A stretch of 64,000 nt of DNA from Escherichia phage dhabil: sequence record MN850621.1; one strand, written 5' to 3'. The position numbers were made by a program, and so were the translations under genes. Of the stretch, positions 11,937-12,598 are shown one piece after another. The notes beneath the pieces are model-generated. The model did no database searches. It was not told where the DNA came from and saw only the letters and a program-made list of their open reading frames with translations. Numbering within the stretch: position 1 is the first letter of the stretch; every line of letters begins with the position of its first letter.

Positions 11937-12146
11937 TTATTTTAGCCATGAAGAATTTTCAGAGACCCAGCTATCTATATCTGATTGCGGGCCAAAGAAG
12001 TAGGCAACCCCATTAGATAACTCTCCCGAAAGCCAATTTATACCTTTCAGGCTTTCTTTAAATTCTTCAGGAGTACAAGAAACCTCTATTGCCACCGAAG
12101 AGGCTGACTCCATTGCTTCTGTTAAGAATTCTTTGTATGATTTCAC
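11937..12146 (-). CDS. ipI: internal protein I-like small head protein (CTS-bearing)
   Basis: [11 protein letters not shown]… N-terminus; sits immediately upstream of 57B as ipI does in T4; sequence divergent. Confidence 0.5.
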
Positions 12147-12598
12147 TTTAAATCCTCGGCCCAGTCGAGCTTCAAGGGTTCTTTATATTCTCTATCTAAA
12201 ACGACAGGAATCTGGACATCTCCACTAAAGGTAAGAGGTCCTACATTATAAGACAATGTGATATGAGGGGTGTAATCATCGAAATCGTGCGTAGCACCTA
12301 AGGTACGAGCATACTGATGGCGGCATTTAAGATACTCTGAATCGAGAACCAGTACCAAGACAGGAGAATCACCATGTTTCCACACTTCAAGATGTCCTGA
12401 CGAAGCAACTTCGAAACTTCCGGATGCAACAGTGTATGGAACGTTGACTCTTGAATAGCAGATTGTAGAATGGAATTTTTCACGAGGAACTGGATTAGGA
12501 ACCTTTAAAGTGCGCTGAAGATTTTCCAGCGCATCTAAAGTCAATTCAGAGAATTTTGCAGCAACGTATAGACCTTGAGCAAAATCTTCGGTTTTCAT
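12143..12598 (-). CDS. 57B: 2H-phosphoesterase family protein, gene 57B homolog (Acb1-type anti-CBASS nuclease candidate)
   Basis: 151 aa with two H-x-T motifs (FHSTI, PHITL); syntenic position between ipI and 57A/gene 1. Confidence 0.7.

Follow-up and report, generated by a model that had tools for sequence, protein, structure and literature searches.

The Acb1 protein of phage T4 was found by activity-guided fractionation as an enzyme that degrades cyclic nucleotides, and deletion of its gene ends this activity in lysates (PMC9117128). Cleavage of cyclic di- and trinucleotides that contain adenosine (3'3'-cGAMP and cUA, as well as cAAA) in a metal-independent manner, together with CBASS rescue in vivo, has been reported for T4 Acb1 and nine homologues, all nine of the further homologues tested being able to cleave 3'3'-cGAMP and cAAA (PMC9117128). 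The T4 enzyme is characterized by a catalytic tetrad arranged as two HxT motifs, with H44 and T46 in the first and H113 and T115 in the second (Hobbs et al. 2022, PMC9117128), and the H44A/H113A protein is inactive (PMC9117128). Four aromatic residues (Y12, W74, F107 and W147) stack against the bases of the ligand, E141 contacts the N6 of adenine, and a C-terminal lid made of residues 145-152 shuts over the ligand (PMC9117128). Crystal structures are available for the Acb1 of Erwinia phage FBB1, both in its apo form (PDB 7T26) and with 3'3'-cGAMP (PDB 7T27). Panoptes systems, which sense the depletion of decoy nucleotides, restrict phages whose acb1 is intact, and the phages that escape carry an inactivated acb1; Panoptes systems select on this gene (PMC13577387).

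The stretch of DNA analysed here, hereafter the window, comprises 64,000 nucleotides of Escherichia phage dhabil (sequence record MN850621.1). A megablast search with positions 9000-16000 returned Escherichia phage dhaeg as the best match (99.6% identity), with CLB_P2, IME08 and JS98 coming next, and the window is classified by sequence as a JS98-like Dhakavirus (Straboviridae, Tevenvirinae), a T-even phage. Its acb1 gene (57B) occupies positions 12143..12598 on the minus strand, a frame of 456 nt that starts with ATG, stops with TGA and encodes 151 amino acids; the assignment draws on the list of open reading frames and on matches to PDB, to Pfam and to T4 57B.

Three comparisons connect this protein to the Acb1 family. 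First, a phmmer search against all PDB chains gave the FBB1 Acb1 (7T26/7T27) as the top match (E = 3.1e-59, query residues 9-148), with 92 of the 141 aligned positions identical (65%). Second, the Pfam model PF23474 (Anti-CBASS protein Acb1) is matched with 198.2 bits (E = 7e-59), about seven times its gathering score of 27, residues 8-149 covering profile positions 1-144 of 144. Third, BLASTP against T4 57B (NP_049750.1) found 129 identities over 151 residues (85%), with no gaps (E = 2e-100). The protein is assigned in PHROGs to phrog_755 (E = 1e-66), and no NCBIfam model matches it. A prediction made with AlphaFold2 from the single sequence was uninformative (mean pLDDT 38.7, pTM 0.31), so that the compact 2H phosphoesterase fold is deduced from crystal structure 7T26, to which 65% of 141 residues are identical, a level at which the fold would be expected to be conserved. 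With high confidence, the gene can be regarded as the Dhakavirus orthologue of T4 Acb1 (gp57B), a small single-domain 2H phosphoesterase whose cleavage activity is assigned by orthology.

The first-pass annotation had placed a 151-aa homologue of 57B at 12143-12598, had pointed to two H-x-T motifs in it, FHSTI and PHITL, as typical of the 2H phosphoesterase fold, and had proposed it as a candidate Acb1, noting that 57B encodes Acb1 in T4. The frame is present as described, on the minus strand, which the annotation had left out, and both motifs are found in it, at H43/T45 and H112/T114. It was indeed in T4 57B that the Acb1 activity was first found (PMC9117128), and the alignment to T4 Acb1 proposed at that stage as a check gave the match reported above. 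The Acb1 reading therefore holds up, with support from the T4, FBB1 and Pfam comparisons and from the conservation of the named residues.

The first catalytic HxT (H43-S44-T45, corresponding to T4 H44/T46) lies at nt 12464..12472 and the second (H112-I113-T114, T4 H113/T115) at nt 12257..12265, both on the minus strand; they were read from the sequence, with their role taken from PMC9117128. The protein contains exactly two HxT triplets. Taken by itself, this pair is weak evidence and not significant, because 5% of shuffles of the 151-aa protein carry two or more such triplets. The evidential weight comes from homology, namely from the FBB1 Acb1 structure, the Pfam Acb1 model and T4 57B.

Comparison with the T4 enzyme at the level of single residues is consistent with this assignment. 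At its N-terminus the window protein lacks one residue relative to T4 Acb1, and the nine residues named in PMC9117128 are all kept, each at T4 position n-1: the catalytic tetrad (H43, T45, H112 and T114) is aligned and identical to that of T4, and so are the ligand-contact residues Y11, W73, F106, W146 and E140. The C-terminal lid would correspond to residues 144-151 (Acb1 residues 145-152; 12146..12169, minus strand), including W146 (T4 W147), as aligned to the T4 and FBB1 proteins and with its role assigned by homology. In FBB1 Acb1, the tetrad and the equivalents of T4 Y12, E141 and W147 are identical as well, whereas F and Y replace W73 and F106 of the window and T4 proteins, which are conservative aromatic swaps, and a one-residue indel follows W73. 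More distant are the divergent 165-aa structures deposited as 'Anti-CBASS protein Acb1' (PDB 9Q2G and 9Q2Y), with marginal E-values of 0.0035 and 0.037, respectively. They and the LigT-type 2H phosphoesterases (PF13563) have in common with the window protein the 2H architecture with two HxT motifs, the second of them in register, and by sequence they are superfamily relatives belonging to another subfamily.

The window protein differs from T4 57B at 22 residues, located at positions 2-8, 26-32, 42, 56-58, 75-80, 91-99, 123 and 148, that is, mostly at the N-terminus, at residues 56-58 and at residues 75-80. None of the named functional residues is among them. At the DNA level, identity to T4 57B is 73%, and 81 of the 123 nucleotide differences fall at third codon positions. 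Codon differences are mostly synonymous (65, with 22 non-synonymous), and dN/dS is 0.034 (Nei-Gojobori, with dS saturated). These values argue for strong purifying selection on the protein, as would apply to a working enzyme.

By homology, the window Acb1 would bind cyclic di- and trinucleotides that host CD-NTases produce and that contain at least one adenosine (3'3'-cGAMP and cUA, as well as cAAA, or cA3). The bases would be stacked by Y11, W73, F106 and W146, the adenine N6 would be read by E140, and the lid would shut over the bound ligand. The adenosine would be distorted, letting its 2'-OH attack the neighbouring 3'-5' phosphodiester, on the 3' side of the adenosine, with the two His/Thr pairs (H43/T45 and H112/T114) predicted to provide metal-independent acid-base catalysis. 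A 2',3'-cyclic phosphate would form as the intermediate and give way to a linear product, and the predicted outcome is that CBASS effectors are never activated. For the window protein itself, the analysis of the sequence shows that it is an orthologue, keeps every named residue, is under purifying selection and lies in synteny with T4; from the T4 and FBB1 work we infer its substrate range, its catalytic mechanism and its anti-CBASS phenotype. The most likely function is thus metal-independent cleavage, as a 2H phosphodiesterase, of adenosine-containing cyclic di- and trinucleotides.

A different reading would keep the orthology and shift the range of substrates, either towards a narrower one that spares cA3 or the 2'3'-c-di-AMP decoys and does not trigger Panoptes, or towards a broader one that includes cGG. 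The 22 substitutions relative to T4 could be seen in this light, particularly the stretch 75-80 directly after the base-stacking W73, where five of six residues are changed (HGDSPV vs TQDGST in T4) and could tune specificity, and Panoptes systems do exert selection on acb1 (PMC13577387). However, this stretch is variable between T4 and FBB1 as well, and for this reason it appears to be a tolerant loop. Moreover, the catalytic residues match those of T4 and so do all of the ligand-contact residues, the latter making a shifted range very unlikely, and the nine divergent homologues were all active on 3'3'-cGAMP and cAAA (PMC9117128).

The genes of the stretch around acb1 are all on the minus strand. 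Upstream of acb1 lies 57A, which encodes the tail-fibre chaperone (12598..12828, minus strand; phrog_1002, 60% identical to T4 gp57A), preceded by gene 1, encoding the dNMP kinase (12821..13582, minus strand; phrog_139 and the annotation of phage dhaeg), gene 3 (13582-14172, minus strand), a gene for a 221-aa HNH homing endonuclease (14255-14920, minus strand; phrog_655, E = 2e-55) and gene 2 (14905-15741, minus strand). On the other side, acb1 is followed by a 69-aa ORF (11937..12146, minus strand; phrog_23867, of unknown function, E = 2e-42). Gene 1 overlaps the start of 57A by 8 nt, the TAA stop of 57A overlaps the ATG of acb1 by one base (TAATG, vs a 4-nt overlap in T4), and the 69-aa ORF begins with a GTG that overlaps the stop codon of acb1 (GTGA). 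This tightly packed and co-oriented block would fit co-transcription and translational coupling.

Internal protein I is an inhibitor of the GmrSD restriction enzyme, and the presence of an ipI homologue marks a T4-type anti-defence neighbourhood. The homologue is found at 11580..11870 on the minus strand (Pfam PF11634 IPI_T4, E = 1.5e-26) and its product is 57% identical to T4 IPI. Its frame begins with MEIKM, and the alignments to T4 IPI and to phrog_4363 both begin at the second methionine (residue 5), so that the true start is probably at 11858; in phage dhaeg the annotated CDS has 279 nt, in agreement with that start. Overall, the gene order is that of T4 (ipI, 57B, 57A, 1, 3, 2) with two local insertions, the 69-aa ORF and the HNH endonuclease gene. 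The window acb1 occupies the slot that 57B has in T4, immediately downstream of 57A and gene 1 and not far from ipI, and the context of Acb1 in T-even phages, downstream of these two genes and beside the ipI locus, is found here with one extra ORF before ipI. The first-pass annotation had put the gene between ipI and 57A/gene 1; this order stands, but acb1 and ipI are not direct neighbours, the 69-aa ORF being inserted between them.

The HNH endonuclease gene sits between genes 3 and 2 and overlaps the end of gene 2 by 16 nt. It is absent from phage dhaeg, where genes 3 and 2 are adjacent and the match to the query is split into two pieces (91% coverage), and similar genes, labelled 'site-specific intron-like DNA endonuclease', are annotated in relatives including SHP1, C6 and QL01. 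It looks like an insertion polymorphism of a mobile element.

Beyond ipI, homologues of trna.2, trna.3 and trna.4 lie between this gene and a tRNA cluster at 10339-10571 (minus strand, from a tRNA call). This cluster consists of three genes only, tRNA-Arg (TCT), tRNA-Asn (GTT) and tRNA-Met (CAT), as against the equivalent T4 locus, which comprises eight tRNAs plus segB and rnaC/rnaD. Further on, a gene at 9480-10103 on the minus strand encodes a protein of 207 aa, which has a leader like those of internal proteins, MKTYNEFLNESVLTEA, and in its centre a low-complexity stretch rich in Pro, Ala and Lys, KPAKPAKAPVAKPAAPTKVAPPKPAAAPKAEPVKEAPKPK; the protein has no Pfam match and belongs to phrog_2280, of unknown function. 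A late-promoter motif, TATAAATA, is located just upstream of this gene at 10132-10139, on the minus strand.

Scans for transcription signals over 11400-16000 gave numbers not above chance, both for sigma-70 promoters (17 sites, with 13.8 +/- 3.4 expected) and for intrinsic terminators (3 sites, with 2.7 expected). In the whole window, the T4-type late-promoter motif TATAAATA occurs 19 times, with 8.2 +/- 2.7 expected. Most copies lie in the 25 to 55 kb range of the plus strand, as would fit a late structural-gene region. The nearest minus-strand copy upstream of acb1 is at 16205-16212, before gene 4, and could give rise to a long late transcript that includes acb1.

The 69-aa ORF is separate from Acb1, and T4 lacks a counterpart of it. 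It matches no Pfam or NCBIfam model and occurs in only 28 phage records (Dhakavirus and some Citrobacter and Erwinia phages). It is unannotated in phage dhaeg, and the records of JS98, JS10 and IME08 list only the neighbouring 57B feature under the match. Its N-terminus is similar to those of T4 internal proteins, with their capsid-targeting leader and LxE cleavage site, and its product could be a small protein of the polymorphic ipI locus that is packaged and injected. Bolder variants can be formulated, in which either the substrate range of Acb1 differs from that of T4 through the 75-80 loop, for example by avoiding Panoptes decoys, or, separately, acb1 and the translationally coupled ORF form a two-gene counter-defence unit, the ORF possibly encoding an injected anti-defence protein. 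We consider it very unlikely that either of them applies.

With regard to distribution, a tblastn search of 50,697 phage records with Acb1 gave matches in 1,471, of which 1,461 are close to full length. Matches at least 99% identical number 27 (Dhakavirus), and 757 are 80-90% identical, mostly in Tequatrovirus-type phages of Escherichia and Shigella; identity goes down to about 30-45% in T4-like phages of Acinetobacter, Vibrio and Aeromonas. The matching records are labelled 'hypothetical protein', 'RNA ligase', '57B' or 'RNA ligase/cyclic nucleotide phosphodiesterase', and at least one recent record carries the label 'anti-CBASS protein Acb1'. The RefSeq label for the 57B of T4, JS98 and IME08 is 'RNA ligase', which is also the description of phrog_755.

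These labels, together with a weak and partial match to the LigT-like Pfam model PF13563 (2_5_RNA_ligase2; E = 0.061) and three tRNA genes about 1.6 kb from acb1, could suggest a 2'-5' RNA ligase or LigT-type RNA repair enzyme that acts on RNA ends, for instance in tRNA repair, and not on immune signals, but this reading is extremely improbable, given that the match reaches 13.8 bits against a membership cut-off of 27 and the Acb1 model 198 bits, that the label 'RNA ligase' has been inherited from an annotation at the level of the fold, and that the T4 orthologue was identified by its activity as a cyclic-nucleotide degrader, an activity lost on deletion (PMC9117128). The reading was rejected, inherited annotation and a sub-threshold superfamily match being what lies behind it.

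The window copy is thus an ordinary, intact acb1. Identical protein sequences are already public, and published work already covers the Acb1 family, with its structure and mechanism, and its occurrence throughout the Tevenvirinae; a textbook orthologue at the expected position in a known phage genus adds no new biology. The result does support relabelling as Acb1 the records that are commonly named 'RNA ligase' or 'hypothetical protein'. The intact acb1 predicts a phage that is armed against CBASS, with the ability to neutralise CBASS signalling through adenosine-containing cyclic di- and trinucleotides, and exposed to Panoptes, to which, by published analogy, it would be sensitive (PMC13577387). 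Such predictions can be of use in host-range prediction and in the choice of phages for therapy.
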